64,000 nucleotides of DNA from Amoebophrya sp. A120 (GCA_905178155.1 CAJINV010000013.1:1740281-1804280); one strand, 5' to 3'. Counted from the first letter of the stretch, positions 4,128 to 43,437 are shown. Numbers and translations: made by a program. Notes: generated from the sequence alone by a model not told the origin.

Positions 4128-4396
4128 ATAGAGAATCTCTATCCCAGATAGAGATTCTCTATCCCAGATGGAGAATCTCTATTTGGGATGGAGAATCTCT
4201 ATTTCGGCTTCGCCACTGGTGGAGGAGCTGCTGAAATATAGTAAAAAACATGTGGGAAAACAGTAAGAAACAGAAAAAGAAGAAAAAAGAAAGAAAAAGA
4301 AAGAAAGAAAAAGAAAAAAGTGATACTCTTTATCGAGAATTTCTATTTTCCTCGGAGAATCTCTATTTCAAATAGAGATTCTCTGAGATTTTCTAT
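4128..4396. repeat. Array of palindromic ATAGAGA(A/T)TCTCTAT motifs interrupted by an A/G-rich microsatellite
   Basis: Motifs at 20-bp spacing at 4131/4151/4171/4191, then at 4335/4355/4372/4385. Polypurine tract at ~4265-4320. Confidence 0.85.
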
Positions 4397-4644
4397 TTCG
4401 AGAGCCTCCATTATACATCTTCATGAGCTAGCAGTTTGTGCTTTCCAAATCCGGTACAGTACCCGCAGTTCCACCCAAGAGTACAACTAGAGGCTACCCT
4501 TTTTACTATTCGAACAACGTCCCACCTCCCATAAAAAATATCTCCCACAAGAATTCCTGCAAATCCCAATCGCTGTCCACCCGATTTACTTACTTACAAC
4601 TAGTCCAACTCCAGGGTACTATCAGTATTTTTCCGTACGTAAAA

Positions 4645-12041: not shown

Positions 12042-12904
12042 ATGGCGAACGTTTTTCCACCGGTTGTGTCATCAATGTTCGACCCCAACGCGGCCGCCCC
12101 TGCTGCCCAAGCGGTTGCAAATGTACCCCTACAGGAGCTGCCAACTACGACGAATGTCTACGGTACCGCGCTGCAGTATGTTCAAATGTTGGCAGAAAGC
12201 CCAGGCGCATGCTGCACTGCCGCAGCGGTGACGGTGGTGGTGGCGCAGGCACTGGTGAACTTGTGGATCTGGTCCGTATGGACGTGGAGGTACGTATGTA
12301 AGCGGAATGAAAAATTGTGCTTCTACATGTTGACAGATCTCGTATCATTTAGCAAATTCTGCATCTTCCCAAATTCTACTTTCCCACACGCTCTCTAAAG
12401 TACTTCTATGCTTCGTGTTTTAAATAATTTTTCAGGTTTGCCCAACCTACTTCCTTTCGCGGTGGCGCCGCGGATTCCCTGCTGAAAGAGTTCGAGACCT
12501 ACGGGTACGGGCCAGACATGATGAAGTTTGTCGGTTTCGTGAAACTCGGCGCCGCCACACTTTTACCCCTGGCGGTTATGGACCCGGGCTGCGATTATTT
12601 GCTGTTTCTCTCCTCCGGGGTGTTGCTCTTCCTCATGGTCGTCGCGATTGTCTCGCACTTCAAAGTAAACGACCCGATCAGCCGGAACTTTCCCGCCGGC
12701 TGCATGGCGGTGCTCTCCCTGTACGCACTCGTCATGGGGCTGGAAAAAGGAAGCTCCTACGAGGCGTTTTCCTTTTGGCGGGTGCTGGTGGGCATCGTGC
12801 TGCTCGCCGCCGACGGCTACATGTGGTATGACGCAAAGTACAAGTCCAAGGCGTACGCGACTGTCCCGGCGAGCGACAACGTCTTTTTCAAAATGGTGGA
12901 GTGA
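12042..12904 (+). CDS. DoxX-family membrane protein, paralog 1 (exons 12042-12289, 12436-12904)
   Basis: Spliced WTWR-FAQPTSFRGGAADSLLKEFETYGY...VGFVKL...LMVVAIVSHFKVNDP resembles bacterial DoxX-like proteins. GT-AG intron 12290-12435 is in frame. Confidence 0.8.
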
Positions 12905-22165: not shown

Positions 22166-22667
22166 CAAAGCAAGAATAAAGGAAAAGCAACGAGGACGTT
22201 GCTCTTGAAAGAAGTCCTGCCTAAACGTACTCGACAGGAGGTCATTTTCTGTGAGGACTTTATCTGTGATTCGGTTTTGAAGATGGAAAGCGGTTTTGAA
22301 AAAAGTGTGAGCCAGATGAATAATCCTCTAGCAGTTGTCCTCAGAGAGGCCTTGCCCCAGTGATTTTTGAGAGAGCGGTCCGAACATTAGACAGGGTGTG
22401 GCAGTGAGGATCAGATCTGAATTTATCGAACAGGTCCTAAAAAAATAGTTGTCATTTACGTACTTATGCACTACAGTCAGCCTTTCTCCTCCTGTTCCGA
22501 AAGGTAGCGCTAGCGCTGTTCACATCAAGGATAGAAACAACCACGCAAGTCGCAACGAAAGGTTTAATATGGTTTACCCTGATGTTCTAGTGCAGTTGGC
22601 GTCTATGCAATTTCATCAGTAGACAGAGCACTCTACGTAATAAAACGGAACAACTACGCAAAGCAAG

Positions 22668-23258
22668 ATGTTTGGTCTGGTCGCGCCCTTCGCGATTCTG
22701 CTTCAAGCTGCCACGACGCTGTGGATTTGGAGCGTGTGGACCTGGCGGTACGCGCTGAAGACCGCGTTCAAGCCGGCCGGGTGTTCCAACCGCGTAGCGG
22801 AGTTCAAGACCTACGGCTTCCCCTCCTGGATGCTCGGCGTGATCGGGTTCTTCGAGCTGTTCTTCGCGACGCTGCTGACGATTGGAATCATGCTCCCGAA
22901 GTGCATGTTTCTCGTCACGGGTTCCCTCGGGCTGATGATCCTGATGACCGGCGCGGTGGCGGCGCATGCGAAAGTGAGGGACCCCTTCGTGAAGTACTGC
23001 GCCGCGCTCGGGATCGGGATCGCGGCGGTCATCGTCTTTGCGTACAGCGTGGTCTATTTTCTGCGGTCCAGCACGAACGACTACGAGACGATAAACGATT
23101 TGATACCGAAAAGCTTCGACGATTTTTTCGTCTTGCTCGAGTCGGTGTTTCTCTACGGGACGTGCGCGCCGGACGGAACGGAACTAGGAGCGGGCGATTG
23201 CGTGTCCGAGATGTTTTCGAAACAAGGGCTGGAGAGTTTCAACGCGTTTCTACTACCG
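22668..23258 (+). CDS. DoxX-family membrane protein, paralog 2, exon 1
   Basis: Shares LWIWSVWTWR, EFxTYG, GF, LM--A---H-KV-DP with paralog 1. Homology breaks at CCG|GTGACA (phase-0 donor at 23259). Confidence 0.8.
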
Positions 23259-23430
23259 GTGACATGCCTGCTGCCGATATGGAGTGGGTTGCAGTAATCA
23301 TGGTTTTGAGTCAGAATCGGAACTTTACGATTTATTTTGTTAAGACTGCTTTTTGCATGCGAAGTGGATTCGACATGACGGTGAGGCACAAAATCTAGCT
23401 GTTTTTGCATGTTTTTTTCAAAAATCAGCT

Positions 23431-24530
23431 CTCGCAAATTTTCAAAAATCAAGGCTGTAGGTATTTTTTACTCAGCCGCCAGGGCCAGCAGCACGGCCGT
23501 GGGAAGGACAGGAAACGACCCATCAATTGTTGACTGCAGTTTGAACCCGCGGCGCAAAAGTTATTTTGTCCGATTTTCAGGGTGAGGCGGAGGTCTCGCC
23601 AATTTTGATTTTCGAAATTTCGCCAGAAATGATGTCCGGGTTTCGCGAAGTTTCTATCGCCGTGGGAGGGTATCATGCGTCCAACCGGCACAGGCGAGCA
23701 GCTCCGTCGGGAAAACGCAGCTTGCGCATCTTTTTGCCCGGAGTCGCATTCCTCAGGTCTCGCAAATTTTTCAAAAATACTGAAAAGATTGTTTTCCTCA
23801 CTGCGAAGCAAGGTCGTTGCGGCTGTCGGCAAAAGAGGCTGCTGATGCCTCGATGAACGGAAAATCGTGGTCGGGGCTCGTTTAGCTGTCTGGGGACAGA
23901 GGAAGGCGCTCGTTAATTTTTTTATTTTGAACCAAAAGGGATTTTTTTCACAGCGCAAATTGATGAGGCAGCTCCTTTCCAACCAGTCAACGCGGAAGCG
24001 GTTCTCAAGCTGTGTCAGACGTGCTACCGGGAAAGGCGAAGTCTCACAAATTTTTTCGAATCCACGCAAAGTTGTCGCAGGGGATGACGGATTCCGGCGT
24101 TAAGAAAGCAGCACACAGAAAAGCACGGGTGGCATACAGGCGAATCACCAACGCGAAATGGGCCTCAAGAAGTTTTTTTCCGTGTCTCAGCAGCCCACCA
24201 CGCTCGCAAATTTTTTCGCACAATGCAAAAAATGTTTCTATACTAAGCGGTCAAAAAGGGTAGCGGGCCGTAGTTCGGCTAGAAAACGTGTCCGCTGGAG
24301 TTGTATGCGAACTCGAGGAAGGGGGGGCTCGCAAATTTTCTAAAATTGATCTGAGACTATTTTTGTACTTGGCGATAAAGGTGTGATACTAGTTGTAGAT
24401 GGTCGACCCATCATCCATCACCACGCGTGGCGAGGGTGACGGCTCCACACGATCCGGTCTCGAACGCGACACGGCAGAAAAACTCGCTTTGCCGATTTGT
24501 CGCCCTGGGGCGACTCTCGCGAATTTTGTG
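23431..24530. repeat. Dispersed CTCGC(A/G)AATTTT motif at ~125-190-bp spacing
   Basis: Copies at ~23431, 23595, 23759, 23909, 24043, 24203, 24328, 24516 (some degenerate). Confidence 0.65.
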
Positions 24531-24545
24531 AAATATCGTTTTTAA

Positions 24546-24593
24546 GGGTATAGAAAATGCAATCCCAAGAACAAACTTAAAAATTTTACATGC
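24546..24593 (+). repeat. Left terminal inverted repeat
   Basis: GGGTATAGAAAATGCAATCCC-aagaacaaa-CTTAAAAATTTTACATGC, directly after TTAA. Confidence 0.82.
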
Positions 24594-26191
24594 TCTGCTC
24601 CGTGCGCGGAAAACAAAGCGAGCGCACGCTTTGCATTATGAAAAACGAAACTGCTAGGAATTTATAGATGGCAGCGACTATACAGAGGCGCAAAACGATT
24701 TCGGTTGGAGAAAGGTAGTAGTTTGCATTACAAAATACACTGATAAGCAATCACAAGATAGCTGCACCCAATGCATGAATAAGCAGCAGCTATACAGTTT
24801 CAACGAAAGCACTACAGGCGGCCGCACTTAAAATTTTCTACGACGTTGCAGTACGTGGGTACTGGTAGCGATTTGTGTAGCGCGGCAAGCTCGCAACTGA
24901 AGATCCAAGTAGAAGCGCACGAGAGCGCCGCTGTTCCGGGGATGCACAGGTCCTGAGAATGTTAGTTTTTTTCATTGAGACGCCAGAGATGAGAACTAAT
25001 GACGAAGCGAAGTGAGGTAGAGAGAGAGTAGCCGCGCGCGTCCTTTTTCAATTAAAAAAAACCTTTAGCAGATGTGTCGCCATGAGGGCGAGCCCGCTAT
25101 GGGCGGCGCTGGGGCGCCTTTTTGTGCTACTTTTGCCGAGCGGCGGGGGAAGGCGCGCGCTTTGATTCCATCCGGGAGAGAATGGAAAAAAAAGCCCCCG
25201 CCCGGGCGCCCCTGGGCTTTCGTTCAAGGGCGCCAATGGGCGAGGATCGCGGAAAAGCGAAGCAAAGCCTTCCGCAGCGCCTGCGGGAGGCAATCGCTTC
25301 CACTTCCGCGCGGGGAACGAAAAGGGGCGCGGCCTTGCTTCTGGTTTACCGGTATCGCGCCGGAGACCCCGGCACGGTCCTCGGCCGATTTGGCGCCGGT
25401 TCCCCCGTACTGGGGGCCGCCGCGAAAGTGGGCCCCCCCTTCTCTCTCCGCGCTATGCGCCAGCTCCGGCAATTGTAGCACGCACCAACTTCGGCCCCTT
25501 GGCCATGTATTTGGCCGCTGCGGCCTACTGCCAGAAATGGCGCAACGTTCGGGGCTTAAAGTCGCCCCGCAATTGGTACCCTTAGCGGCTTGGCCGCGCG
25601 GGCGCTTTATGGAAGATGGCCCGCAACCAGGTGGCGCCGCGTCTGCGGAAAGACGGCAGCCAGCCTGACACCTTGCCGACGTAATGTCGCCGTGCCCACG
25701 CGCGCTGTTTTGAATAAGTTGTGAATCACCGCGGCCCTCCAGAATGAAGGAGTTTATTTTTTTCCGATGATGTTCACGTGAAGAATTACACGAGATGACG
25801 TTGCAAACATTTTGTGGCGAGTTAATGTCTTTCAATATTACAATTTGAACCACACAGCGCGACCTACCAACTGCTTTCGTTCCACCACGCAGGCAGACCT
25901 TTGGTGCCCACAGCCTCGACACCCACCAGCAGCGGCTCAGCCCGTATTAGACCTGCGGCGCGGTTGAAGGGCCACCGGCATCGGTGCTTTTCATTTCCAT
26001 AGACTGTTGATTGATGTTGTTTGTGTGCAGAAGAAGTTCTATTTGTTTATGCTTGGAGTCGAGCAGATGTTTGTGCATTTTTGCACCAGCTATGCAGATG
26101 CGCCCGAGCTGTCTAGTGTGATGCGCGCAGCTTGGGAAACTTATTTCATGTAAAAAACACAACCTTAAACTACATCCCAGGTTCGTGCAGC

Positions 26192-26882
26192 ATGAATTTC
26201 ATGCCGTTGCTCATGGTCGAGGTCGAGCCGGACTACCGCCTTATTGATCGCCATGGCCGTGTGAGCAAGTACTTCTCCCTCACCGCCAGCTCCGTGCACT
26301 CAACGCGTCGTGTTTTTGTTGGAGTAACTCGGACGAGCGTCGTGTTTTTCTACAAGGCCAGGGATCCCACAGTGCAAGAGCTACGAAATAGAACTGCAAA
26401 AGCGGCTGCTTTGAATACAGTGATGATTTGCATTACAGATTATATGTGCCTTGCATGCCAAAAAGAAAGCGAACATGTACTGGCTGCATAATGTTGGCAT
26501 TCAAATCAAAAAGCTTTTGCAGTTTTATTTTGCATACCCGGACGAGGTCGCGATGATGCCAGGACGACGATCGCCACTGTTCGATGCCGCCAAGAACATG
26601 CCTTTGCCGCGTTTTGGATTAAGTAGTTTTATTAGTTTACATTGGAAGCGATACGCAAGTGCTCTGCTGCGAGAACGTCTGTGCATTTCAATTCCACGAT
26701 CAGTGTACTATCGTGGTGTGACTGAGAAAGCATATGACGAATGGCATGCAGACCGTATAGAAAGTCGCCAAGCATGGCTACGCGCTTGGTTCTGCCGACC
26801 CAGACCCATTTTTGTAAAGGAATTATACAGCTGCGTGGATCGAAGCAAGAGTAGCAGCAGTGTGGTAGAAGAAGTGGACTAA
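26192..26882 (+). CDS. Cargo gene A, hypothetical (exons ~26181-26419, 26523-26882; 5' exons possible)
   Basis: ORFs 26132 and 26451 join via phase-0 GT-AG intron 26420-26522. No recognisable domain. Confidence 0.55.
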
Positions 26883-27674
26883 TAAACAACGCAGATGTAC
26901 TATTGTGCGTTACCGTGATTCAATTGGCCCGTGTTATACAGAACTGCAGCTCTGCGGCGAGGAGCATTCTTTGCGTCGGTTGATGCTACATGTACCGTGT
27001 TCAAGTTTGCACAGCTGCTCTGTCTATTCGATAATCAAACGAAAATCTTCTGCGCCAAAACCACAACAAAAGCGTTCCTATGTCGAGGCTGTGATCAAAA
27101 AAAATTTCTAGAGTTGTGATTTGTGGGTTGTGTGAACGAGTTGTAGAACCAACAAAATGCATCAGAGTTGTGAATTATTTTTTTGCGCATTGCCGGATAC
27201 GTTGTGAAGCATAGATTTATTGTGGAAAAAAAGCCTGTCTCACGTGTGCGTGTGAAGTCTGTGTTTTTTGATGAGCTGAAAGCAAGAAGTGTGGGCGTGT
27301 GTGAAGAGTCTGTTGTTTTGTTTTGATATTGGAATCAACTTGAAATACCTATGCAGCGCTCTTGTTTTTGAAATGTATTTGTGCTTCTTGATATTGTCTT
27401 CATAAGAATTACTGCTAGCATTGCACCTGTGCGCTCTTTGATCCCCATAATTCCAACTAATTCCCACAATTGAAAAACTGCCCTTCCAATCACGCTGCTT
27501 TCCCAAATTCATGCTCTTTGGCAAATTGCATTACAAATTTTGACTTTTTTCGCATTGCGTCATCTTTTCGCATTGCGCGTTCGTCTTCTTTTCCAAAGCA
27601 AGCCCGTAGCTGAGAGATTGACGAATAATTGCGAATTTTACCTGAGGCGAAGGCAAATCAAACATCTTTTAAAG

Positions 27675-30380
27675 ATGGCAGATAATAACGCAGGAGGTGG
27701 AGGAGGACCTGGTGGTGCTGGCCAAGAGCAACAGGCGGTTGCTCGCGGCAACTTGCTCGAACTGACAAACGTCAGAAAGCGATCTGGCGGAGTAGCATCG
27801 ACTTTGCTTAATGCAGTGACCGGTCAGGTCAGTCGGTCCTGGACCCAGTTGAGTTTAGTGATGCTACTCAAAATGCTGCAGGTGGCGCTACAAGATTCCA
27901 TTGAAGTGCTAATTTTGTTTTTTTGTTATTGTTTTGTGATGATTTGATGCGTGGCATGTGGTTGTTGTTGATGCAAAATAAACTATTCAATAAATTCATC
28001 ACTACAGCTGGGAGAACTGCAGCTGGTCTGCACGTCCTGCGCCAGAATGTTATTAGCAATTCTGGTGATCACAAGAACGCCCAGTCCGCCACAGCTTGGG
28101 ACCTTCCCGCGTTCCGGGCGTAACCTGTTACTTACGAAATACAAAAACCGCGCGAATTTGGCATGCATGTGGTGCATTATTGTGTCATGCAAAGATTTGC
28201 ACTCGCCTTCATCCACAGGCATTTACACCGGCGCTTGAGAATTTCGTAAGTTTTTAGTTTCATACCAGTACTGCTCCACGCCGCCACTGCCCGGATGACG
28301 TGCAGCTACCGCCAGAGTTGGCAGGACGTACTATTTTTTTTTTAATGTTGGCGCTTTGATGAAATCATGATGCTTTTCTTCATGCAGGATTTGCAAACTA
28401 AATTATACTACTACAACATTGCCAGGCTTGCCACATTTTGGATGGCTTGCAAAACGCCAGCGAGCGCCGGATCCTGGAAACTTGGTTTCGGATGCTGCAC
28501 CACTTTCACAGTCCGGATTTGGACGACGACATGGTCAACGGCCTGTGGCAGGAAGTATGAAAATGACAGATATAGCAAAGCAGCTACTGTTGCATGTAAA
28601 AATTACAAAGCAGTTTTGTATTTGCAAGGAGTGCACGTTTGTAGTATGGCTGCATAAATTTTGTGCTTTGTTATATTTTCAGTTGCATACGTGTACATCG
28701 CTCAGTGGCAGCCCAGCATGGTCGGCCTCGGCGAGTTCACGTTGAATTCACCCGAGCGTGCCCGTCCGCAACGGCAGCTGTTCGCCCCGGTCTTGATGGA
28801 CGCTCCCCGTGTCGCCCCGGAGCAAAACCCGGCTGCTGACGGAGGTAATCCCCCTGCTGCGCCCGCAGCTCCTGCTGTTGAAGCTGCCGCTCCGGCTCCG
28901 GCCGCGGACGAGGGCGTTGAGATGCCCGACGCCAATCCGGTTCCGCCGAAAGCTCCGGCTCCGGTCGTGCCCAACACGCCCGTCGCGGTGAAAGCTCCGG
29001 TTCCGAAGGCCAACCCCGCGCCGAAGGCCAAACCCGCGGCACCCGCGGCTGCTGCGGCTGCGCCGGAGGCCCCGACCACGACCGGTATGATTTTTTTTTG
29101 TTTCAATGAAGTCATGATTCAAAATTGCATGTTTTCATGAAAATATTTTACATGCAAATCATCTACTCCGCAGGTAATGACATGAGCGGCATGTTGGCGA
29201 TGCTCCAGCAGATGATGAGCACGGCGATGCAGTCCATGATGGCCGACTTGAAGGCCGAAGTGAAAGAGACTGTGATGACCGAGATGGCCGTGGCGAACTC
29301 GTTGAGCGACGCCGTCCCCGAGGAACAGCTTGAACAACCCCCGATCATCATCAGTGCTGCCGGTGTCCAGGACGGCGGTGTCTCCAACACCGCGAGTGCG
29401 AACTTGCAGACCCCGATCTCCCAGTCCGGCTTGCCGGTGCGGCAGTTGTTTCTGTCGGGAGAATCTGTCGGTCCGAAGGCTCCCCCCAGTGGGAAGGCTG
29501 GTATAACATCGTTTGTCATGGAGATAGAACTTGTGACGAGGCGGCATGAGTTTTGCAATGCTATATTTGTCCACTTTCTTTACAACAGCTGCGAAGCAGG
29601 GTGCAGTGACCTCGTCTGTCAACCCCGCTGCTGCCGATGCGAAGCCGAAAGCCGTGAAGAAGACGCTGCTACCGCCGGGTAAGATGTTTTTTGTTTTCAA
29701 ATATGAGCGTGTGCATGATGTGGCATTTTCTAAATAATTTTACTTCATAACTAATAACAGAATCTTCTCCGGTTCCGAAGGCTGTTCCGAAGGCTGCGCC
29801 GTTGTCCTCTGGTTTCAAAAAGAAGGAGTTACCCAAGACGACCCGCATGTCCAATCAGTCCGTGACCCCCGCGATCGCGCAGCCCGCCCCTGCGGCGGAA
29901 GCTCCGGCTGCTGCTTCGACCACCGCGGCGTCCTCGGGTGTGAATGTGACCATCGGCGCTGCTGCTGTGAACACGCCCGTGGTGTCCTCGACCGTGAGCG
30001 TGACCGTGCCGGACACCGAGGTCGTCGACCCCGCTGCCAAGCGTCGTCGTCTCTCGAGTACTACTGCGTCTGAAGCGAACTCTGTTATTCCGCCCGCCTA
30101 TGATCCGAACCTGACCTACAGCGCGAACCTGGGCCGTGGTGTGCCGATGGACGTTTTGATGAGCCAGTCCATGTTGAACCAGCAGGAGGAGATGCGTACC
30201 GCGATGCACTGTGATCAGCCCGAAGTTGAGATTCCGGAAGACGAAATCGCGGACTGGATCAACCCGCAGCCTGTCATGATCACTGGTGATAACGGCACCC
30301 AGATCCCGTTTGTCGACCCCACGCCGGATTCGGACGGCGATGTCGTTGATGAAGAAGATGATCTGTTGAAGGAGGATTAA
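27675..30380 (+). CDS. Cargo gene B, multi-exon Pro/Ala-rich protein with NLS-like motif and acidic tail
   Basis: Start MADNNAGGGGG. GC-rich exons (28683-29084, 29174-29500, ~29590-29678, ~29761-30380 plus small 5' exons) separated by AT-rich GT-AG introns. PAAKRRRLS motif; DEEDDLLKED terminus. Confidence 0.7.
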
Positions 30381-31164
30381 AGTGATTCTGAATCATCGGT
30401 GTAGAAAAACAGAGACTTTTCGCTACGGCAGATGTTAAATGAATTGAAGTTAGAGCTCCTTGCTAAGTTTATTGTTTAAAAGTGAGTCGAGTTCATCTTC
30501 ACCTTCTTGATGCATGTCTTGTAAAATTTTTTGTTTTCCAGCAGCAAGCGCATTTCAGTGTCAGTGTTTATAAAAATTTATGAATTTTATTTTCCATTTT
30601 ATCGGGCGGATAAGCTGGTGGAAAAGTTTTTACACAGTTTTTTTGGGAATAGGGTTCCCCATAGTGTCACAGTTCCTACGCCGCGTCATGTGCGGTAGAC
30701 TTATTTTCGGTTTACAACTACTGATGCCGTAGTATGTCATGTTTCTTGTCCCGAAAGCGATTGACTTTTCATCAATGCAATGTACGCGAAATAGCGACGT
30801 GAAAAAGCAACTGTACCTGTTACCGCGAACGAGCCTGCTGCTTGAGTGGGACCATATCAATGTTTTTTTGGGAAAAATCAAAAATGAATAGGAATACTCA
30901 GCACGGCAATGCGCAGCTTCTTTCTCATGTCAATATGATTTGTGTACGTCGAGTTTTGTGGTCGTGCGATGGTTGATGAGGCAAAAGCGCAAGGATGAAT
31001 GACGCCACGTTGCTGATGATGAAGATAAAACTACTTTGCGAAGTTTTGGTGTGAGAGAGTGACGCTGGTATGTGTCAGTCACAATGCGAATGCGTGTCAC
31101 AAGTTTGTCGGCTGTGATAATTAGAAAACAATGAGAGATAGATAAAAAGCACGCAAGTGTAAAG

Positions 31165-31761
31165 ATGCAAAGAAGAGCTGCGTTCGCGGGCACTTCGCCC
31201 GTGGACCTGGATTTGGAAGCGACGGATATCACCGATATTCCGCTCATCGCAGTAAACGAGCTTCTTCTCGGTTTACCTCTTGAAGTGTTCGTCAAAACCG
31301 TCCGCCAGTTGCAGCAAACCACCCGAAAGGACTACGCAAAAGACCCGCAGAAAGGACATCTTCAGCCGAGTAATCTTCGCAACAAGACCCTCAGCTTGAT
31401 GATGCAAGCTTTCCAAGACGAGACTGCGAATCTCGTGCTGCAGCGGCAGGGACAGTCGAAAGAAGCGGAGAAACAACCATGGGTGTACGCCATGCCGGGA
31501 GAAACCGGTCCCGACTTGGTATCGGTTGACGGGTTTTTGGCTTTGGCCAACATGCGATGCAACAAATACTACAAGGAGGCGTTGTCTTCGCGGAAAAAAC
31601 GACCACTGGAGCATAGTAGTGAGCACTTCGCGAAAATTTTTGCAGAAGCCCTGTTGCGACCGCTGGAAGCGTGTGGGAAGGAGTCCGTGATTTTTGACGA
31701 CGTGAAGCTAGGACACGAGGTCGAAGCATCCGCCTTCCAGTGTTTCTGTATGAACTGCTGA
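31165..31761 (+). CDS. Cargo gene C, hypothetical 198-aa protein
   Basis: Single ATG-initiated ORF with coding-like composition, SRKKRP basic motif and CFCMNC end. Confidence 0.65.
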   Translation: MQRRAAFAGTSPVDLDLEATDITDIPLIAVNELLLGLPLEVFVKTVRQLQQTTRKDYAKDPQKGHLQPSNLRNKTLSLMMQAFQDETANLVLQRQGQSKEAEKQPWVYAMPGETGPDLVSVDGFLALANMRCNKYYKEALSSRKKRPLEHSSEHFAKIFAEALLRPLEACGKESVIFDDVKLGHEVEASAFQCFCMNC

Positions 31762-33032
31762 TGCGTCGCGCTCCTCTATCACGCACAGAAGCGCTTGTAT
31801 TGTACTAAACTACATATTTTTGTGATAGTTGTGTGATAGCGGAGCGTGACGCATTTGAGTTGCATACTGGACGGCTCTGGTTGGATCACTTTCACGGGGA
31901 ATGCTTGTATACTTATTTTTTTATAGTTGTATTCCAACTTCAGTTGAATTATTTTGGGAACAATATGTTTCGTGCACTTGTGAGCATTTCATGAGAATAG
32001 AATTTGTGGCTTGTTCAAATTGAGAAGGGATTTTACAAGCGCTCGCTTTTGCACGGCGACCGAGACCATATAGGGCAGTCTAAGAAATTTAAAGCTCGCG
32101 AAAATGCATCACTTTCTGCATAAAACACGCAAAGCAGAAATGTTGCGCTCCGGCAAAACAAAAAGCGCGCTACCTGGAAGCTAGCAAAGCTTCCAGAAGC
32201 GCGAGGGACGAATTTCTGCCAATGCTTACCCAAGACATGCGGCTGCTTTTCATGTTGCGCGCATTTTAGGAAATGACGTGCCGACATTGGCGTACTCAGT
32301 GCGCGCGCGCGTGTGCGCGGGCGCTTGCACATCGCCAGTCGCAAGCACAAAAACAAGCGCAATTTCAAGCATCAAAAAAAGCGCAAAAACTTGCGCAATT
32401 TTGAGCATATTTTCGCGCGCTTTTTCGCGCGCAAAAAAAAGCACGCGAACCGAGGCCATGCCATGCAGTCTAAGAAATTTTCAGGTAGTGCAAAATGCAT
32501 GGCTTTTTGCTGCGCAAAACAGAGCATAAAAGCGAGCACTTTTCACAGCGCAAAAAAAAGCGTCCACAAATAGAGCTCCCAAACTCCTAAAACTCTACTT
32601 GAGGGCGCTCTTGCAGTAGGGCATCTTGTGCATTTTCGCGTGCTTTAACGCGCGCTGCAACTTGATGCAGCGCAAAAAATTGCACATCATCACGTTGCAG
32701 CATGTGAAAAAGCATAAAAAATAGCGAAAAAAAGTAGCAGCTCCACGCCTGCGCGCGGATAGCGTGTCTTTGGCATGCAGCTGTTGTTTTTCAATGGTTT
32801 CGCGGCTGGAGATGGAAATCAAGCATTTGTTTGTGTCCAGGTTATTTCATTTTCCGCAACAAATGTGTTTGTGGGCTGTCGCCAGAGCCGAGCGTGCAAA
32901 TGTCGCAGCCACAAGCCGTGACATTTGTCTCTGGGCCTGATGGTCTGGAGAAATAGCAGTAATTCTATGTTTTCGCTTGTTCTGACACAACCATGCTGAA
33001 GCGTCAGCTTTAAATTCGTATTAAAATCTCAG

Positions 33033-33959
33033 ATACTCCGGCGCGGAGCATCTCAGTCGTGGACCTTCTGACATGGTTTTTGCAATTCGGATCATCGAAG
33101 GTACTACTTCTGGCTGTGATGCAACAAAAAGCACGCTTTTTTGCATGACAAATTATGACGCTTTTCTTCAGTCCGATCATCGTACCATGACGCGTTCGAA
33201 GCTAATGCAAAAACTATATTTCCCAGGGGTTGGACCACATGGCAGATTTTTTCAACGCGGCGTACGCGGAAATTTTGGAAACCTGGCCAAAGGATCAAGC
33301 TGCGAGCTTGGGTATACTTCTTGAGCTTGGTTTGGTTGCATTTATGAAAAACATGCATTGTGATTTGTCATGCATGCTTTATAATTTTTCGAAACAAATC
33401 AGGTTGCCAGTTGGTCGACAAGACGCCGGCGATCGTCACGATTGGAGAGCCCGGTCGACACAACAAGCCGTTCGATCAACTAATCCACTGGTGTGCGGCT
33501 CCCTACAATCCAAAACTCAAACCGAACCTCGAACAATCGCGGATCATCCTGGTTTGGGGATACCTGTGCTGGTTAATGGAGGTGGTGAAGGTGAGCCAGA
33601 TGATGTGGAGCAGGTATGGAAAGCCGATTGGAGTCGCATTGGACGGTGTGCGACTCGGCGGTCGCGAATTTGTCCAGACGAGAATCAGAGGTCCGTGGTT
33701 AGACGAAGTCGACGAATTCTTCACCCTCAACCTCTTCGTCGTCGCGATGCCGGAAGCTAGCTTTGCAGAAATCAAGAAATTTTTGAAGCGATTGGACCAG
33801 GCGGATTACTCCTTCTCGTACCAGGAAAAGAAATATTCTTGCTGGATGTCGGCGCTGTTGCAAATCCTGGCAGCGCTTTGCGGTTGGGGTCGAATAGTTG
33901 GGGCCGGCGCGATGGATGATCATTTTGCTTCCTTTTTCTCTCGGATTTCTCCAACCTAA
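33033..33959 (+). CDS. Cargo gene D, divergent macrodomain-like protein (exons 33033-33100, 33227-33311, 33403-33959; first exon upstream)
   Basis: Phase-compatible GT-AG introns. VVDLLTWFLQFGSSKGLD, AIVT, LIHWCAAPY, L-WGY--WL and IGVALDGVRLGG follow macrodomain motif order (IVNAAN..GGGVD, AVIT, VIHTVGP, L--AY--SL, SIAFPAISTG). Confidence 0.5.
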
Positions 33960-35641
33960 GAAATTTTTTTAGCCACCACGCACCGAGGCCGGGCCCACCG
34001 AGCAGAATTGTCCAGGGTCTCGCCTGTGCGGCCCCAAAAAGAAGCGGCGTCGCACATGTTGGGCCGCTTGCGGTTGCGCCGGTGCTCTTGGGGGCCCGGC
34101 CGCCGCGCTGGGTTGTGGCATTGCGGGGGCCCTTGCGGAGGGGCAGTGGGGTGTTGGCGCGGTCGGTCCAGGCCGCGCAGGCGCCCACCTGGCGCGGGGG
34201 CCTGGCGCAAACTGGCCAGCCGAGGCCGGGAGCCGAAATGAAGCAGGAGGAAAGGGGGGCGCGGGTCCTTGCATGGGCCACACTGGGGAGGGGAGAGGTC
34301 GCGGCCAAGCTTGGTAGAGCGCGTGAAGCGCGGGCGTCCGTCCCATGCCAGGCAAGGAGCACCGAAGCTGGGAGGAGACACAGAGCACAGGATCCATGCT
34401 CGGCCGGGGGCCTGCGGCCCGCAACCAGCGGGGCGCCCCCGCGAAGGCAGGGATCGGCGCGGCGCCTTCGCCATGTCCCGGGCGGGCTCATTTCGCGTCC
34501 AATATCCCCGGTCCCCTTTCTGAATCCCGGCGCCCCAGTTTTCGCCGTCCTTCCGAAGAAGGGTCGCGCGAAAACTTATGATCATCATTTTCTTCAGATT
34601 TTCTCATTATTTTCTCACCATTTTCTCATCATTTTGTCCAGCCGACAAAATGATGAGGTCGCTATAACCGTGGTCGTTAGCTCGTGGAACGGACAAAATA
34701 ATGGGTGTGTGTTTGAGAAAATAACTAGAAAATCTGAAGAAAATAATTTGTAAGATTTTTCATAATTTTCTCCTGTTCTTTCCGAGGTCCCGGACAAGAA
34801 GTTCCGGGCGCCGGGAGAAAATCTGGAGAAAATTGTGACAAAATGATCGCCCAGAAAACGGCCCCCGCCGAATCGCCCCGCGCGGGTGTTTTGGTTGGGG
34901 CACACAAGGGGCCCGGCGCACCGGCGCCATCCCGAGCGCCTTCCCTGCTTCGCGTCTGGGCTAGCTGGCTCTTCTGCCGGCGTGGCACTTCTACGGCCAA
35001 ATAGCCTGCGTTCTTCGGTCGGCCCCACTTAAATTGAGAGGCAACCGCTAACAAAGAAACAACCAGGGGCCAAAATACACACGCACCGAGCGCCCGCGGG
35101 CCTCCGTTTGGGTGGCCCCGCCCCCTCCCCAGTCTCCCGGCCTCTTTTGCCTGCGCAACCCCAGCCCCCCGGTGCGTCCGGCTTGGCGACCGGCCGTCTG
35201 CCTACGGCGCATCACGGCCCAACCCGCGGCGGCTTTATGTTTTAGAGATCAGGCCGGTGTGGCGACATGATCCCGGCAGGAGTTGGCGCGGCCCGCTGTT
35301 TTTGCCGGGCCGAATTTCCGTGCGAAGGCTTGGGGCCGCGCCTTCATCTAGCGGGCGCCGGGCGCTCTCGGGGTCCCGGGGTGGAAAAGTTTTTTTTTCA
35401 AAGAAAAACCGAAGAAATCCGGCAGCAATCTGGGTTGCGTCATTCATCAAACCACGCCGGCCCCAAGAATAGGAGTTGACCAACCCTGCTGCTTCGCCAT
35501 GGATAAATGCAGCGGAAACAGTTACCCGGCTTGGAGAAGTGAACGGGGAGATGTATGAAACAAATTACTCACGTTCTGCCCACGTGCATATTTAGCATAT
35601 TGCAAGCGGTTGTTTTTTGATGCGGATGCGCTACAGACTAG

Positions 35642-38546
35642 AACGGAGTAATTTTTTTCGCTGGATATTCTCCGTCGATCTGCATCTATGATGTTCCCCA
35701 TGATGAAAACAGACAGTCGGCGAAGGTGGCGGACAAAATGTTACCAGTCAAATTAAAACGATTGTACCGATTGCGGTCCACTTCTAGCGGCATGCACAGC
35801 GTGAAATTTTCCGATTTTTTTGGGGCAGTGGTGGAAAAGTGCGATAGCGATGACATAATCCGTCTTGTGGGGGAATTTCGCGAAGATTTAGAAGCCGAGC
35901 TGAACACATCCGACGACGCGGATGATTTTCCGCAAAAAGTGAAAGAGCGGTGCAAGCAGATCCGTAGCGAGCTGGGGAATTTCGCCGCGAAGGAGCGGTT
36001 CTGCCAGCAAGATTATACTTGCTATTTCGCAAAACGGGGGTGGACGACGTTGCGGTTCGCTTTTCGTGCTTTCTTGTACATCGAGAATCCGCGGCGATCC
36101 AGCTTGGAAAACGAAATTTTCGTGTCCGCGCCAAAAGACGGTCGACCGGCGCTGATATTGTGGAAGGACTTGAGTCTTGACCTGACGCTGGCGAAGGCGA
36201 TGGGTGATAATCTTCCTTTCAAGGCCAAACGACAGCCGGCGGATGAGAAAGAAGAAAGTACTTTTTGCGTATTTGTTTACAATGTGCATGACAAATTACA
36301 TCTACGTACAAATCAGATGCATTATCGCGCTCACAATGTGCATGACAAACAGATATTACGCATTACAAACAGGTGTTTTGAAAGACGAGGACCCGGGTTC
36401 TTCTTCTGACGATGACGACGAGAACCGGCACGATAAAGCATTGCTGAAATCGGAAAACAAGAAAGCAAAAAAGACGTGGGATTTTGCGAAAGATACCGTT
36501 GAGGTGGCCGACATGGTCGAGACAGATGAAAACTGGGCCCTTGCGGACTGGGTGAAAGAATTGGACGAAAAGAAGCGAAAACGCAAACAGGACGAGTTGA
36601 AGAACTTGATGGAGGAGCAGCTTATCCAGCTTGGACCCGCAGACAACCCAAACGCCATCATCTCAATCCACACGACCCTAGCAGATGAGTCAATCCGCAT
36701 GAGCGCCCTCATCGTGGAACTGGCGAAGCGGAGCAGTTTGTTCTACCACGGTGCGACGATCGCAATCGGGTGGGTCAACTTGAACGCCCACGGTGCGTTC
36801 TACTCCCAATCGCCATCGATGTTGGCGGATACTGCAGCCTGGTTCAGTGCTTTTCTTGAGGTGGATTTGCAGCGCTCTCTCCGTCTCAACGACGAGGAAC
36901 AATTCGGGGACATCTTCGGAGCCACTTTCTACTGGGTATTTTTTGTTTGCGGTTCTGCATGACCAAAAGGATAGTTTTTTGCATTCCAAAAATATATCCG
37001 CGTGCTGCTGCCTTCCAAAACTTTTATTTTTTTGCTCGTGCACAAAAGATTAAACGGCGCTTGCAAATTAAACTTGTTTGCATGTTTGAGTTGCAGCTTT
37101 TTCATATACCAAAATAATCAGGTCATGCGGAAGGCGATCAAAACGCAACAGTTGCGTTTATCGCAAGAAAAACGGATGCTGATGTACGGCCAGAAACCGG
37201 GGCTCAGCCTCTCGCTTGGCGATTTTCTTACCCTGCCGGAAGGTTTGCAAGGATGGAAAAGCTCGGTGGCCGAGTTGCTCCGAGACCGCCAGTTCTACTT
37301 GAAAACCGAAAACAAGTCCTTCGTTCCGTTTCTGACCGACACCCCGTGCAAATTTCTGCGTCCCGCGGACAAGAAAGCACACTGCAATGAGTTCACTTCA
37401 CCGCACAAAATTCCCTGCTACACGCATTTCCGGGAGAGGACCGTACTGGACAGCTACGAGTTCGAGTCGCAGTTGCTGGCCAAAATTCTGGAGGTGAAAT
37501 CGTTGAAGAAGAACCCGATCGCGTCGAAGTTGATCAACTGCCTCGGAAAGCAGGAAAACAGCTTTTTGATCCGGACCTGGATGAAGATCTACGAAACGAA
37601 GGGTGAACAGGACGCGCAGAACTTCCTGGAGCTTTTTCCCCCGGCATTAATTCCGAGCACGCGCGACATTGAGGCCTACGGGGGAATATTGTCCAAAACA
37701 AGCCGCAAGAACAACAACGCGGGGATTATGCAAAAGGTATAGACTATTTTGCTGCGATGGCTGTAAAGTTTCTACTTCGTATGCTTGCATCCGACTTTCA
37801 AAATAGCAGTGCTGCATAACAAGTTTCAAACATTACAGACATCGCAGTGGGCCCTGCAGGAAGCAGCAATTTCGACTTGGGTGCCGCCGTTTCGCGCATA
37901 CGATGCGCAGTCGGATTTGCTTACACGGAAAGGCTGCATGGACTCCAACAGCGTCCTGGACGGACGGCAGCTGCTGGAAAATGAGAACGACATCGACTAC
38001 GACGCGGTTTTGGATATGTGTTTTCCGGACGGCGGAAGGTTTGAAGATATGGCTACGCTGAGAGCGCCAAGCGACATCATGCGGACTTTGAACCGTTTGA
38101 AAATTGGGGAAAAAACGTGGAACAACGACCCGAAACCGGAAATCCAGAAGCAATTGAAGCTGACTACGAATTACCCGAAACTAGAAGACGTGATGAGTGA
38201 ACTGAAACAATTTATGAACCTCGACCACGCGAAGCACGGTTTAACACCAGAAGAAATCCAGGAATTTTTGAAGTGGAAAACCAGCACGCCGTCGCTGCAC
38301 GAAAGGCGGATTGCCGAAGCAGTGATCGATGAAAATCACACAGACATAATGCAAGGCACCCCCGGGTTCCAGGAATCTTGTAAGCGGGGCCGGTTGCAAT
38401 GCTTGCACTTGTTTTTCGTGTTGCGCCAGTACACCGAGATGAAGAAGCCCCTGATCATCGAGGTGCACCTCTACGGAAAGCGTTCGCGGATCATGCAGGT
38501 TCTAGCCGTGAGTCTCAAGCTGCAGGTGGTGATCGGGATTGTTTGA
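35642..38546 (+). CDS. Cargo gene E, large multi-exon hypothetical protein (~830 aa)
   Basis: ORFs 35726, 36204, 37002 and 37785 join via phase-compatible GT-AG introns 36258-36372, 36936-37121 and 37737-37838. Possible 5' exon near 35499 and 3' exon at ~38800-38937. Confidence 0.72.
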
Positions 38547-39742
38547 GGCCGGCGGATCTGATGAGGAGAATCGTCCGGATTTCCTCGGGATTTCTTAAGA
38601 TTCCCGAAAAATTTTCAAGCTTGGGCACTCCTTGGGCCCTTTTAGGCTGTCCGATTTTGACGCGTCAGGCCTTTGGGGGCGGATTTGGGTCCTTTTGGTA
38701 GTCGTCCGGCCATTTTAGGCCGTTGGTGGGTGTTTGGGGTCCTTTTGGGCTGTCGCTGGGGGCTGTTTCTATTGCGAAACTGTTACGAAACTGTTAGACC
38801 GCGCAGGACTGTTGCCCAAGGGCAAGAAGAAGAGCGACAAGCTGCAGCCACAGGCCCCACTGGGCGACACGCTTTTCGAGGAGCCCGCAGCGGCGGCCGC
38901 CGCAAATGTAGCGCAGGTGGCTGCTGCTGCTGCGTGAGGACGTACCTGAAGACGGCGCTGAAGATGTGGCCTCGCTTTTCGCTTTTGCGTTTAGAACGGA
39001 AAAAAAAAAGACCTTCCGTCTTGGTCGCGGGATATCTTTTGGATAGCTTTTGTCTGGTCCTGAGATTTCCCAGGATTTCTCCTGGGATTTCTTAGGATTT
39101 CTCAGGATTTCTCTTAGGATTTCAATTACTAAGTGGCGGAAGCTCTCCGCCAGATATCTTTTTTTTGTGCGATGGTGGCTACTCCGGAGCACTCAAGGAG
39201 AGACGCCCGGGAGGTCAGAAGTGGCGCCATTTTGACTTGTCAAAAGTGATGCCTTTTGCTTCACGGAATGCATCCGAGTGATGGGATTTTGCATTTTAGT
39301 GATGGGATAGGATTTGCGTTTTTGCATTTTGGTGATGAGATAGGGTCTGCATTTGAGTACTTTTTGCATTATTTAAAGTGGCGGAGTGTGATGGACCGAA
39401 TTTGCATGATCACGCGCGAGAAAGTGCGACGCCTCTCGGGGAGATTGTTTTTTGCGTTTTGAATTTGCACGCGGGCACCCCTTGCGGTGTTGGAGCGGTT
39501 CTGATATCGTAAAACGCGCGCGCAATCACGAAAATTGTGGCGACGCATCTAGCTAGCTAGCCGTCGCCATGTCATTTTATCGGTTCGGCATATGTGTTGA
39601 TCGGGGGCGGTGCGGCGTGATTTGTTTTGTTACTTGAGAGAAAATTGGAACTCGGAAAATTGAAAGAAATCTCAAGAAATCCGGGACGCGGGGGCCATCA
39701 GAGCCCGCCCGTCTCAAGATTGTGTTGAATGAAGACAAAGCA

Positions 39743-42381
39743 ATGCTTTACGAGAAGGACTTGCTCAGCAAGGGGGAAAAATTCAATGCTGGCGAGGACA
39801 TGGTAGGAGATGAGCCCGCAACCGGTCTCCAGCCCTCTCACCACCACCAGTTCGAGCGGTCCTGTCGCGTTATCAGTGGCGAGGGCGTCGGAAAGTGGCG
39901 AAGTGCTTTACTCTACCAAGTGCACAAGTTTTATTTTTCTTTGCTAACAAGAACGACATTTGTGAATTTGTAATGCGAAGTTGTTATGCATCATGGCGTA
40001 TTTTTCCTATTTCAAATAGCGGCGAGGTTTTCTAATTTTCTAATGCAGCTGGCACATGTTTGTTTTCTATTTATCAGCGCTGTACCTGTTCCCAATATTT
40101 TCACAACAAAAAATCACCAGACTTCTCTCGTGCGTTTAAATCGACCTACGACGGCGATGTCGCGGAGCGGTTCAGGGACTGGAATCAGGCGCGTCACAGT
40201 GTGGAGCTGTGCTATCCCAGGAGCCACCACTGCTACACCATTCCGTTTCCGACAAATTTGAACCACCGGTGCTCGCGGTTGAAGGCGTTATTCATTACAT
40301 CTTCCAGGATCGACATGCTCACCAACAAGTACATCCAGGAGCTGCGAATTATCCGCGACGCCAGGTACAAAGTTTTCAACAGACAGCGGGTGCGGATCAG
40401 TTTCTTCTTTGACGCAGAACAATTCCGACCACTCGAAGCGGCAATACAGGCAGGATTTGGCATCATTTCGAACCCCACCGGAGCCAACAGCAACAAATTA
40501 GCCGATCTGAAGTCGACCTGTGAGTACCTTTTGATGGACGAAGCGAAGCGATTTTTCAACTTCAATCCCGACATGGACGGGAAGCAGTGCTTTGAACCCT
40601 GGGAATTTTGGCGGCTTTTGGACTACAGCAGTTGCGTCGAGCGCGACCAGCTCCTGCAGGATGTGCTCGAAGAGCGCGCCCGACCCTTCCGCACGGAAGT
40701 GGATCCGCAGCAAGACGTCGACCCGAGCCTCCAGGCGGAGAATGAAAAGGACCAGAGTCAACCCCTTGACGACTACCGTGTTGATGTGAAATTTCGGCAC
40801 ATGATCCGCAAGCCAGCCACAGCGTCCGACTCGGAGAAGAAGAGGCTGCTCGAAGGGATTTTTTTTGATGCCCCGGAAGGCATCACCGAGCAGCAAATTC
40901 AAAACCAACAGCAACCGATTTACGCCGTGGACTACCACAAAGACAAATCGCGAAAGCCGGAGAAAAACTGGGGGCCGGACCAGCTGCTGGTGTTCTTCCG
41001 CAGGGCGCTAAAAGATATCGATCAAGTGGAACACATCCGGGACATCTTCTTTTGCTTGTGCTACGGAGAATACGAAGGAGAGAGGATTCTGACAAAACAG
41101 GGAGTTTTCAAAAACGACGTGCATAAAGCGGGCCCAGTTAGCACTATGGCGCTGTCGTGCAAAATGTTTGCGAAAAAGGTGTGCGACCTGATGGGAATAG
41201 CAAACAAGCAGTCCGTTTCTCGCGATGTTCAGCATCACGCGCAGCTAAAGATCGAACAGGAAATTTTGAAAAAGGCAAAGGAACCGCTGCAACCGGAACC
41301 CGCTGCCGATCCGGATGAGATGCAGGTCAACGCAAAAAAGATTCTCGAGGCATCTATCGGACTATTTGGGGTGGCGGGGAAATCAGTAGTTGCCGATCTG
41401 GTATTGCTATAGTTTTTCTGTATTACAGCTTGTCACCTATGCGTCGTTTTCTTTTTGTGCTGTGCAAATGAGTGTTTGGAATATTGGAGCATGACAAATT
41501 CTAAACTACACTATGAAGGTTGACACCACCGCGCAGCCCGTGCCACCGGTCGCGGAAGCCGAAGGTCCAAACTACGGAGTGTAAATCTGGCCACGGGTTG
41601 AACTTGTCTTGCTTTGTATTATTTGTGATGCTGAAAAAGATAACTTTGTAATGCAAAAAGTACACTCTTCAACATTTTCAAAAACAACCCGTGGCTGCTG
41701 TTTAGCATGGATACGACGGACACTATTAAAAAGGAACCGAAGTCGGTGGGACGTGAAAAATATGAGGAGCAGCTGAAACAACTACGACTCAAGTACGCGT
41801 CGGGGAAATTCAAAGCGCAGGTCGACCACAGCAGCGAGATTTTTCATAAGGAGTTGGATCTAGTGAAGCTCCACCAAAAATACAAGGACGCCGAATACTC
41901 GGGGGTTTGCGACGGCTGCGGGGAGGAGATTTTGGTGTACAAAAAAACCTTTCTTTCCGGCGGTGGCCCGTGCCTCTCCTTCAAAGAAGCCCACAAAAAC
42001 AACTGGCGGGCCGTGCAGTTGGGACCACAGTCTCACCGTATTAAGCCCGGATTTGACGAAAAACCGATGTGCTACTGTGGCTTTTGGAGATTTGGGCACA
42101 TTTACGAAGGGGAGTCGATGACCTGTGTGGAAATCTCCGACGACCAATTGTTCAACTGCGCGACTTTAACGGCCAAAGCGCGGCGCCGCGAAGACGTGAA
42201 TTCCAAGTGTAATTGTGATGGTGATTTGAAGGTTGTTGAGAAAGACCTACCGAGGTTGCAGCAGAAGTTTACGTACACGAAAGTAAAAAAAGACGACTGG
42301 CAACTAGCTGAAGATGACAGCACTTTCTTTGATGCTCCCCTGCCCTCGACCAAGGAACTGGACAAAAATGTTTTCAAGTAG
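39743..42381 (+). CDS. Cargo gene F, ~745-aa hypothetical protein with Cys-rich C-terminus (exons 39743-39919, 40078-41400, 41519-41580, 41706-42381)
   Basis: All three GT-AG introns are phase-compatible. C-terminal CDGC...CYC...H...CNC suggests zinc binding. Confidence 0.75.
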
Positions 42382-43099
42382 AGCACGACTGTAGTAAGTA
42401 TAAAAAGTGTAGCTGATCATACAACTTTTGATAGTTTTCATTGTGGTAAAACCCCTCGCATAGAGGCCGCGTTTGTATCTTCGTTTTTCACTATAAATGT
42501 TTTCTTCTCGTCGCTTTGACTTCTACCACCATCGGGGATTTCTGGTTGCGAGTCCTTCTCTATTTGTTTCAAGGAGCAAATCAATAAGTGCAGCACCAGA
42601 TCAGTAGCAAAAAGCGTAAAAAGTACAATGTAAAAACTCACCAACGTAGCCGGGTTCAAAAATATAAATGCCTCCGATTGAGACAGGTCCTGCATCAGTA
42701 GCATGGCCAAAAGAGCATCACCCGCGCGCTACAATTTTCAGGGTCTATTGCGGCAGAAGTGTCTGGATCTTTAGCTGGTTCAAATTTCAAAGCAGCGACG
42801 CAATTACAAAAAAGGTCTTCGATTTCTAATATATAGTGTAGGGGGGCGCATCCTACTAAAAAGACACGCTTAAGTATGTGCGCGTATGGCGTATTGGTTC
42901 TGTAAACGATCAAAGAAAAAAGATCAACGATCTAATTCACGTGAAAAAACAAACCGATAATATCAGTGTGGATCTACATCGAACGTTCCACAATGCGACT
43001 AAAAACCACAAACGCGCTGCGATCTGATTTCAATAAAATAAAATCGGTTATCGTGGTGCTGATTCGGTTTTTCGTCGTGACGGTGCAGCAAAATTTCGC

Positions 43100-43147
43100 G
43101 CATATGAAATTTTTAAGATTGAGAAAGGAATTGCATTTTTTATACCT
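43100..43147 (-). repeat. Right terminal inverted repeat
   Basis: Reverse complement reads AGGTATAAAAAATGCAATTCC-tttctcaat-CTTAAAAATTTCATATGC; TTAA follows at 43148-43151. Confidence 0.82.
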
Positions 43148-43230
43148 TTAACGTTTTAAGGAGAAACTTACTTCGTATCTGATTTGGCTCAGAATCAATC
43201 TCGTTTGAAAGAAATTCATACTCGTCGCAG

Positions 43231-43437
43231 CCGGGGAGGATTTGCTTCACTTTGCTGATCCTGATAATATCGGGCGTAATGCTGACCAAATCTTACAAGG
43301 CTGGGGTGTACCGAAGAAAGTTGAGTCAAACGGGAATTTTCGACGCGAACGTGATGCTGCTAGACAAGAAACGGGACGGTGCGGAAACGGCAAGTAGCTC
43401 GGACGAGGAGGAGGTAAAGGTGAAGGTAAAAAAATAG
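43231..43437 (+). CDS. DoxX-family paralog 2, terminal exon
   Basis: After the CGCAG acceptor: PGRICFTLLILIISGVMLTKSYKAGVY...EEEVKVKVKK*, similar to the last TM helix and YK--Y tail of paralog 1. Confidence 0.7.
   Translation, partial: PGRICFTLLILIISGVMLTKSYKAGVYRRKLSQTGIFDANVMLLDKKRDGAETASSSDEEEVKVKVKK

Follow-up and report, generated by a model that had tools for sequence, protein, structure and literature searches.

The window analyzed here is a stretch of 64,000 nt from the genome of Amoebophrya sp. A120 (GCA_905178155.1, CAJINV010000013.1:1740281-1804280), in which the two exons of a DoxX-like gene are separated by almost 20 kb and the interval between them is occupied by a DNA transposon with a giant, interrupted gene for a predicted transposase (Table 1). 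The gene starts at 22668 and contains a DoxX_2 domain (PF13564; E 8e-11). Its exon 1 protein is a 100% match to one database entry, the protein GSA120T00024329001 of 273 amino acids (aa) from A120, referred to here as P0001. Exon 2 adds coding sequence up to a stop at 43437, including the last hydrophobic helix, and about 1 kb of 3' untranslated region. An initial annotation of the window, made from the sequence alone, had proposed that the final helix is supplied by an in-frame last exon some 20 kb further downstream. The RNA-type contigs bear this out, as do orthologs from strain AT5.2 and an MMETSP transcriptome, which share the helix. The 273-aa gene model with its long intron is already annotated, and there is nothing unusual as such about a transposon within a long intron.

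Table 1. Features of the split DoxX-like gene, its intron and the transposon, with positions counted from the first letter of the window
Feature	Position	Strand	Evidence or description
Exon 1, DoxX-like gene	22432..23276	+	X3 contig 22432-23276, X6 contig 22594-23276
Exon 1 coding sequence	from 22668	+	Pfam DoxX_2; annotated A120 protein P0001, GSA120T00024329001
Non-canonical intron, 19,948 nt	23277..43224	+	Contig loose ends X3, X6 / X5, X6; joined frame equals P0001
5-nt direct repeat, degenerate left copy GCCGA	23273..23277	+	Right copy CTCGT 43221-43225
5' pairing arm, TAT at 23278	23275..23349	+	Duplex with 3' arm
Single-copy intron body, 7 copies of a CTCGCAAATTTT-like motif	23350..24536	.	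DNA depth 42.9, equal to flanks
Target-site duplication CGTTT, 5 bp	left 24537..24541, right 43152-43156	.	Exact repeat outside TTAA
DNA transposon, 18,610 bp	24542..43151	.	Ends TTAAGGGTAT / TTAAAGGTAT; other genomic copies break off there
Left terminal inverted repeat	24542..24593	+	41/52 nt complementary to right terminal inverted repeat
Open reading frames without assigned function	26117..26882	+	No Pfam match
Proline/alanine-rich multi-exon group of open reading frames	27675..30380	+	Short matches to sister element
Multi-exon gene of some 1,900 codons for a predicted DDE transposase with hAT fold, exon-interrupted	31135..42381	+	Profile of homologs
Nested element with terminal inverted repeats, 1,569 bp	33898..35466	.	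12-bp perfect terminal inverted repeat TTGGGGCCGGCG, 6-bp target-site duplication GAATAG, multicopy DNA depth
Right terminal inverted repeat	43100..43151	-	Joined to flank by X2 contig 43050-44479+
3' pairing arm, ATA at 43218-43220	43150..43224	+	Duplex with 5' arm
Exon 2	43225..44445	+	X5 contig 43223-44445, X6 contig 43223-44168, ortholog alignment
Paralog 1	12042..12904	+	238 aa, one 146-nt GT-AG intron (12290-12435)

Seven of the 13 listed runs were compared with the window (X4, X8-X10, X12 and X13 were left out), and copy numbers are based on the contigs matched to it. The RNA-type contigs come from one study, with X3 and X5 representing one sample and X6 another. On the 5' side, contigs of X3 and X6 follow the window up to 23276 and continue with the letters of 43225; on the 3' side, the exon 2 contigs of X5 and X6 begin at 43223 and are preceded by the end of exon 1. 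The joined frame, 23276|43225, is identical to P0001 letter for letter. A shared CG allows the cut to slide 2 nt to the left, giving intron ends of AT..CG, GA..TC or CG..CT, none of which is GT-AG, and an intron length of 19,948 nt under all three cuts. This junction in X3, X5 and X6 replaces the CCG|GT...AG|CCG junction of the initial annotation, and contigs that run on from 23276 to 43225 speak against transcripts ending at the 23297 stop. The putative RNA contigs end at 22432 and 44445, where the DNA-like contigs of X1 and X2 are 8 kb and 95 kb long.

Alignment of the joined protein with its orthologs, proposed earlier as a check, favors the same junction: the local score is 177 for the observed junction, 132 for the GT-AG junction and 40 for read-through, and the orthologs retain eight VTCLLPSQ-like residues that the GT-AG junction would remove. 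P0001 is not independent support, because the RNA-type runs may be the data behind the annotation; the ortholog alignments are, because they derive from AT5.2 and the MMETSP transcriptome. Splicing of the DoxX gene across the 19,948-nt intron is observed and, in our judgment, nearly certain, and a minor GT-AG isoform, about which contigs cannot tell, may exist beside it. Similarity to paralog 1, previously thought to be lost at 23258 and to resume at 43231, is lost at residue 109 (22994). Residues 110-197 of the split gene do not rise above shuffled sequences in comparison with paralog 1 (32% of 1000 reach the score), exon 2 bears a weak likeness to the last helix of paralog 1 (reached by 4% of 1000 shuffles), and this link becomes clear only through the ortholog (0.1% of shuffles). 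A metagenome scan for DoxX orthologs returned four short, distant loci, which are uninformative on the state of the intron, and no empty site.

More than 60% of A120 introns are reported to be non-canonical, and many are repeated introners that carry terminal inverted repeats (TIRs) as well as direct repeats of 3-5 nt (PMC7789003). The DoxX intron has a comparable layout, with TAT (23278) at its start and ATA (43220) plus 5 nt at its end, and the length removed equals the element plus 5 nt, as at the neighboring introners 10935-11186 and 15964-16100, where removal of the element and 5 nt yields the longest open frame and the 5-nt repeats are perfect. Between the first and last 75 nt of the intron, 50 pairs are possible, 10 of them G-U, and the duplex amounts to -39.1 kcal/mol in the sense strand versus -14.3 kcal/mol in the antisense strand. 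By contrast, the DNA-level TIRs of the transposon are strand-symmetric (-42.8 versus -44.1 kcal/mol). The 10 G-U pairs among 50 and the collapse of antisense pairing, unlike in the DNA-level TIRs, point to selection on RNA. The value of the 60-nt end duplex was reached by none of 300 shuffles, no other of the 1,322 windows compared pairs as well with the 3' end as the true 5' end does, and the reconstructed 1,333-nt intron, with the transposon removed, folds with its ends paired.

Among the hallmarks of introners, RNA-supported non-canonical splice sites and an inverted repeat that joins both ends and starts with TAT are present. The motif of TAT, 7 nt and at least three A residues is absent, the left arm having no A run and the right arm an AAA after 11 nt. 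Genomic repetition was not detected either, as the depth of 23067-24400 is single-copy at 90% likeness, a level that leaves diverged relatives outside its scope. We read the intron as an old introner-like singleton rather than a family member, with its pairing kept at the RNA level. Judging from the geometry, GCCGA and CTCGT would be the former direct repeat of an introner, and the end pairing probably guides the cut, as proposed in PMC7789003. The intron need not skip competing GT-AG sites: it is non-canonical and of the introner type, with complementary ends. Annotated A120 introns reach 35,152 bp with a median of 247 bp, and the published intron analysis was restricted to 40-1000 bp (PMC7789003). 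Elsewhere in the window, TAT...ATA elements with matching repeats at four or five of five letters, typical of A120 introners, were noted at 10935-11186, 15964-16100, 16143-16422, 19023-19326 and 32408-32572.

The transposon lies 68 nt from the 3' end of the intron. In a test of 13 symmetric boundaries, the flanks repeated each other exactly over 4 nt (TTAA), over 2 nt, over 3 nt and over 5 nt (CGTTT), the chance of a given 5-nt flank match being about 0.001 per boundary. In the DNA runs, other copies of the element depart from the window at 24541/24542 and 43151. A sister copy has GCAGG outside TTAA in both its left flank (X1) and its right flank (X5), which would constitute a second 5-bp target-site duplication (TSD) provided that both ends belong to one copy; AGGGT, the left flank of a third copy, would agree with a right-flank consensus of X2 that is mixed, and was not counted as proof. 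Because the 5-bp duplication lies outside TTAA both here and in the sister copy, TTAA belongs to the TIR. The initial annotation had taken the element to be TTAA-targeting, with TTAA as the duplication and a residual intron of 1,366 bp; with a TSD of CGTTT, the residual intron is 1,333 nt. The sister copy seems to sit at a splice-donor-like site (flank GCAG-G, empty site CAG|GTACTT), where the TTAA end would recreate a GT.

A Kolobok-like element, with a 4-bp TTAA TSD and RR..YY termini, was the first reading and is rejected on account of the exact 5-bp repeat outside TTAA; piggyBac, with a TTAA TSD and termini unlike RR..YY, does not agree with the 5-bp TSD and the Hermes-like fold described below. 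The depth of the element interior is single-copy except at 33.9-35.5 kb, and a single-copy X2 contig with six short collinear matches along the element represents a diverged sister. In a gap of the transposase gene, a 560-bp stretch (32089-32648) carries a 20-nt inverted repeat (TTAAAG...AAAATGCA) that resembles the element TIR. It has no flanking duplication and is possibly a miniature inverted-repeat transposable element of the large element's kind.

The same-strand nested genes of the initial annotation exist as open reading frames (ORFs), but they are mostly pieces of one broken transposase gene within the TIRs. A search with one exon found 18 homologous proteins of up to 2,161 aa (8 gene models of AT5.2 and 4 of A25, 3 proteins that cluster with models of AT5.2, and 3 unnamed), none of which belongs to the A120 annotation. 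When a profile was built from 14 of them, the window ORFs between 31135 and 42378 matched it one after the other, from position 5 to 1884 of 1885, which indicates one gene in place of the several internal gene ends once proposed. With the nested ORFs recognized as transposon genes without RNA contigs among the matches listed, the conflict between a long intron and several same-strand gene ends is largely gone. Against the roughly 15-20 internal introns of the initial annotation, four GT-AG introns could be modeled with an open frame, and their omission together with the 1,569-bp insert leaves 1,009 stop-free codons; models of seven further internal introns, in the proline/alanine-rich ORFs and the 5' transposase exons, gave no clean frames. 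The insert sits in an exon, between the first two catalytic aspartates; the transposase of this copy is broken and the element is dead. In a further gap of the gene (38575-39695), short tandem repeats occur along with a pair of inverted arms (38588-38619 / 39651-39682), possibly another insert or non-canonical intron.

The repetitive homolog P0024 was omitted from alignments A3/A4 and the profile and included in the counts of conserved residues, which are D80 (19/19), D175 (19/19), D208xxH211 (18/18) and E768 (11/12). By conservation and position, the third catalytic residue is probably the E of TRDIE. The fold predicted for the A25 homolog P0022 (predicted local distance difference test score [pLDDT] 72.9, predicted template-modeling score 0.70) is a Hermes-type RNase H fold with a helical insertion domain. 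All top 10 Foldseek rows are Hermes (E 0.003-0.08), and in VIA Hermes ranks first (Z 11.5, root-mean-square deviation 4.5, 381 aligned), with integrases and other transposases at Z ≤8.0. The element ORFs have no Pfam match above the cut-off, the 17 non-repetitive homologs have none at all, and hAT domains are thus not detected in either; Pfam, PDB sequence, Rfam, ESM Atlas, viral and metagenome scans found nothing for the element ORFs. Word-index searches returned no homolog or the query alone, and folding the D1 exon from its sequence alone gave no usable model (pLDDT 39).

Based on this fold, the element protein is predicted to work like a hAT transposase; membership in hAT is not claimed, because hAT Pfam domains are absent. 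No Kolobok or Dada structure is known in the PDB, so the Hermes match does not separate hAT from its sister superfamilies. The element resembles hAT (Hermes) in its DDE core, the DxxH after the second D, the large helical insertion and the TIRs. It differs in the size of its protein (1,800-2,160 aa; Hermes has about 600 aa), the lack of a Pfam match, an 18.6-kb length with extra ORFs, and ends that start with TTAA. The TSD of hAT elements is usually 8 bp, and 5-7 bp in hAT5/6/7, with 5 bp in hAT5 (PMC12730594). The 5-bp TSD found here departs from the usual length and agrees in length with that of hAT5, a group described within an animal lineage (PMC12730594). Kolobok shares the C/DxxH signature, and the ends would be RR..YY were TTAA the TSD; unlike Kolobok, the element has a 5-bp duplication outside TTAA and no conserved Cys finger between DxxH and E (PMC9587614).

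Compared with A120 introners, the DoxX intron has similar non-GT-AG ends, a TAT inverted-repeat start, 5-nt repeat geometry and a hairpin that joins its ends, but it is about 80 times the median length, its repeat is worn, its body is single-copy, and it contains a transposase-type gene (PMC7789003). Most introner families of A120 are TIR elements that have not been assigned to a superfamily (Gozashti et al. 2025, PMC12130899). One of them, fam135, comprises four non-canonical members with an 18.8-kb alignment and hAT5/hAT6 terminus matches and is filed as non-long-terminal-repeat (non-LTR)/unknown (PMC12130899, Dataset S2, row 553). It is too short to be the present intron and might represent another non-canonical intron with an element of this kind inside. 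None of the 114 Amoebophrya rows examined, of 118 in that dataset, has a final hAT class; fam38, with a 5-bp TSD and TA ends, is filed as Ginger-like (PMC12130899). The nonconventional introns of euglenids likewise have non-canonical borders and ends brought together by pairing, but they belong to another lineage and have CAG/CTG end motifs, and multi-kb cargo is not described in the passages covered (PMC6221363, PMC12501133).

Among the matches listed, RNA contigs longer than 51 nt on element ORFs are absent from X3, X5 and X6. Apart from one exact X6 contig at the right end, described below, the RNA-type matches that fall within the element are diverged copies of its ends or brief stretches shared with other sequences. 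The transposon appears silent. A 3.5-kb X5 contig of high coverage matches 25274-25324 over 51 nt with 6 differences, in frame with an ORF that is GC-rich; the match may stem from a piece of a host gene captured by the element or from chance. An expressed X3 contig matches the element at two places over 20 nt each, which are non-collinear and were treated as chance.

Starting from the directly observed junction with its non-canonical ends, the 5-bp duplication and the single large element gene with its exonic break, a simple model would be that a 1.3-kb, introner-derived, end-paired non-canonical intron is still spliced with an apparently silent hAT-like transposon in its loop, a reading to which we assign a probability of roughly three in four. 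An introner-like insert would first have created the 1.3-kb intron, and the 18.6-kb transposon would then have entered its loop with a 5-bp duplication. The 1,569-bp insert that broke the transposase would have come last, although it could predate the transposon's move. The polymerase likely reads through the silent element, generating one pre-mRNA over 20 kb; the intron ends would pair, and a non-canonical machinery would cut at the base of the hairpin whatever the size of the loop, which pairing of the element TIRs could shorten. The element is likely tolerated because end pairing defines the cut and the transposon appears silent. The initial annotation was right that the element landed in an intron, which existed already and is spliced out; its alternative, an inactivated gene, is contradicted by the contig junction and a joined frame identical to P0001.

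Several observations weigh against this model. The RNA evidence consists of contigs from a single study whose RNA nature is a tool's guess ('RNA?'), and the raw-read runs are uninformative (0 reads in X11, 18-nt matches only in X7). An X6 contig follows the window exactly from 42856 to 43252, unspliced from the right end of the element through the 3' arm into exon 2, at a depth of 5.9 compared with 10.8 for the spliced contig; it fits a late-spliced polyadenylated precursor and may also reflect trans-splicing or read-out transcription. Silence of the element is not proven, because contigs drop rare forms. At 30 nt the end duplex is no better than shuffles (86% reach its value), 12 of 1,317 windows pair better with the 5' end than the true 3' end does, the two copies of the direct repeat have two of five letters in common, and the body of the intron is present in single copy. 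With regard to the transposase, no Foldseek row has E <0.001, a Z of 11.5 falls within reach of helical models, and the fold was computed for the A25 homolog rather than for the window's own protein. Finally, the left end of the element is overlapped by 29 letters only, under the 31-letter rule, and no single record spans the whole element.

The pairing of the intron ends could be a relic of a transposon, with the intron removed stepwise (internal GT-AG introns, loop-out of the TIRs and the outer intron last) or recognized through exon definition by proteins. At least four internal GT-AG introns are present, the element TIRs can pair at about -43 kcal/mol, and the machinery of non-canonical splicing in Amoebophrya is unknown (PMC7789003). 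We nevertheless consider this explanation unlikely, given 10 G-U pairs in 50 and a collapse of antisense pairing that DNA-level TIRs do not display; stepwise removal as such is compatible with the favored model and does not exclude it. Less probable still is that the element has split the intron and that separately transcribed exons are joined in trans through complementary intron ends, as in the split introns of Giardia. A sense-only duplex, the lack of RNA contigs over the 18-kb interior among the matches listed, and the X6 contig from the right element end into exon 2, which has no counterpart on the 5' side, speak for such a mechanism. However, the pairing predates the insertion, because the reconstructed 1,333-nt intron and the short neighboring introners have it too; the exons are in order on the same strand; and such a contig on the 3' side would equally be predicted for a poly(A)-selected pre-mRNA that is spliced late, as nonconventional introns are in Euglena (PMC6221363).

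Misassembly of the element into an intron that is really 1.3 kb long is very improbable. Although a spanning record is lacking and the left end is a 76-nt repeat unitig with a 29-letter overlap, the right end is bridged by the 95-kb X2 DNA contig, which reaches 102 letters into the element, the 5-bp duplication is exact on both sides, and depth is uniformly single-copy both within the element and around it. X2 shows no empty-site joint, and Nanopore reads were used for the published A120 assembly (PMC7789003). We give hardly any credence to the two versions of the initial annotation, in which the intron is canonical, with GT-AG borders at 23259-43230, or the gene is inactivated and ends at the 23297 stop. 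A GT and an AG do exist there in the same phase, but all three RNA-type runs show the other junction, and the VTCLLPSQ-like residues are kept in the orthologs.

Outside the split gene, a kinesin motor gene (19829-22165) lies directly upstream, and a very long gene, composed of 36/108-nt repeats that code for a repeated unit of 12 residues of the LGSSLSV type, extends from 45557 to 64000 and runs off the window; its first ORF has no Pfam match. The GC-rich, internally repeated region at 1700-4400, with inverted repeats, is probably another, non-coding mobile element.

More speculatively, the giant hAT-fold transposase family, which occurs in A120, A25 and AT5.2 and is invisible to Pfam, could be the missing enzyme that mobilizes Amoebophrya introners, a possibility we hold tentatively and with the odds against it. 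Farhat et al. (2021) excluded transposase-driven spread of introners because no transposase was found in A120, and mention two putative A25 transposases (PMC7789003), which might belong to the present family. In favor of a link, the 5-bp TSD of the element has the length of the 5-nt introner repeats seen here, the element ends consist of TTA and two purines, as in the published A25 introner motif (PMC7789003), and their layout of a triplet, 7 nt and an A run has the architecture of the A120 motif. Against it, A120 introners begin with TAT, not TTA; AT5.2 has many such genes and yet 99.98% canonical introns are reported (PMC7789003); the Ginger-like fam38, with its 5-bp TSD, is a rival mobilizer (PMC12130899); and no spliced short derivative of the element was seen. 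No description of a giant hAT-fold family or of a 20-kb end-paired non-canonical intron was found in the literature covered, which did not include Roy et al. 2023 or Repbase, or in 114 of the 118 introner rows; this family of transposases, like its possible connection with introners, appears to be new.

Two open questions in Amoebophrya concern its non-canonical introns, which number in the tens of thousands: how they are spliced, and by what they are moved. The DoxX locus is a natural experiment on the former, as splicing persisted although the loop expanded from 1.3 kb to 20 kb and came to be full of canonical splice sites, which is as expected if end pairing defines the cut. On the latter, it brings forward a candidate enzyme family overlooked by annotation and, with at least a broken copy and a sister element, overturns the statement that A120 has no transposase.

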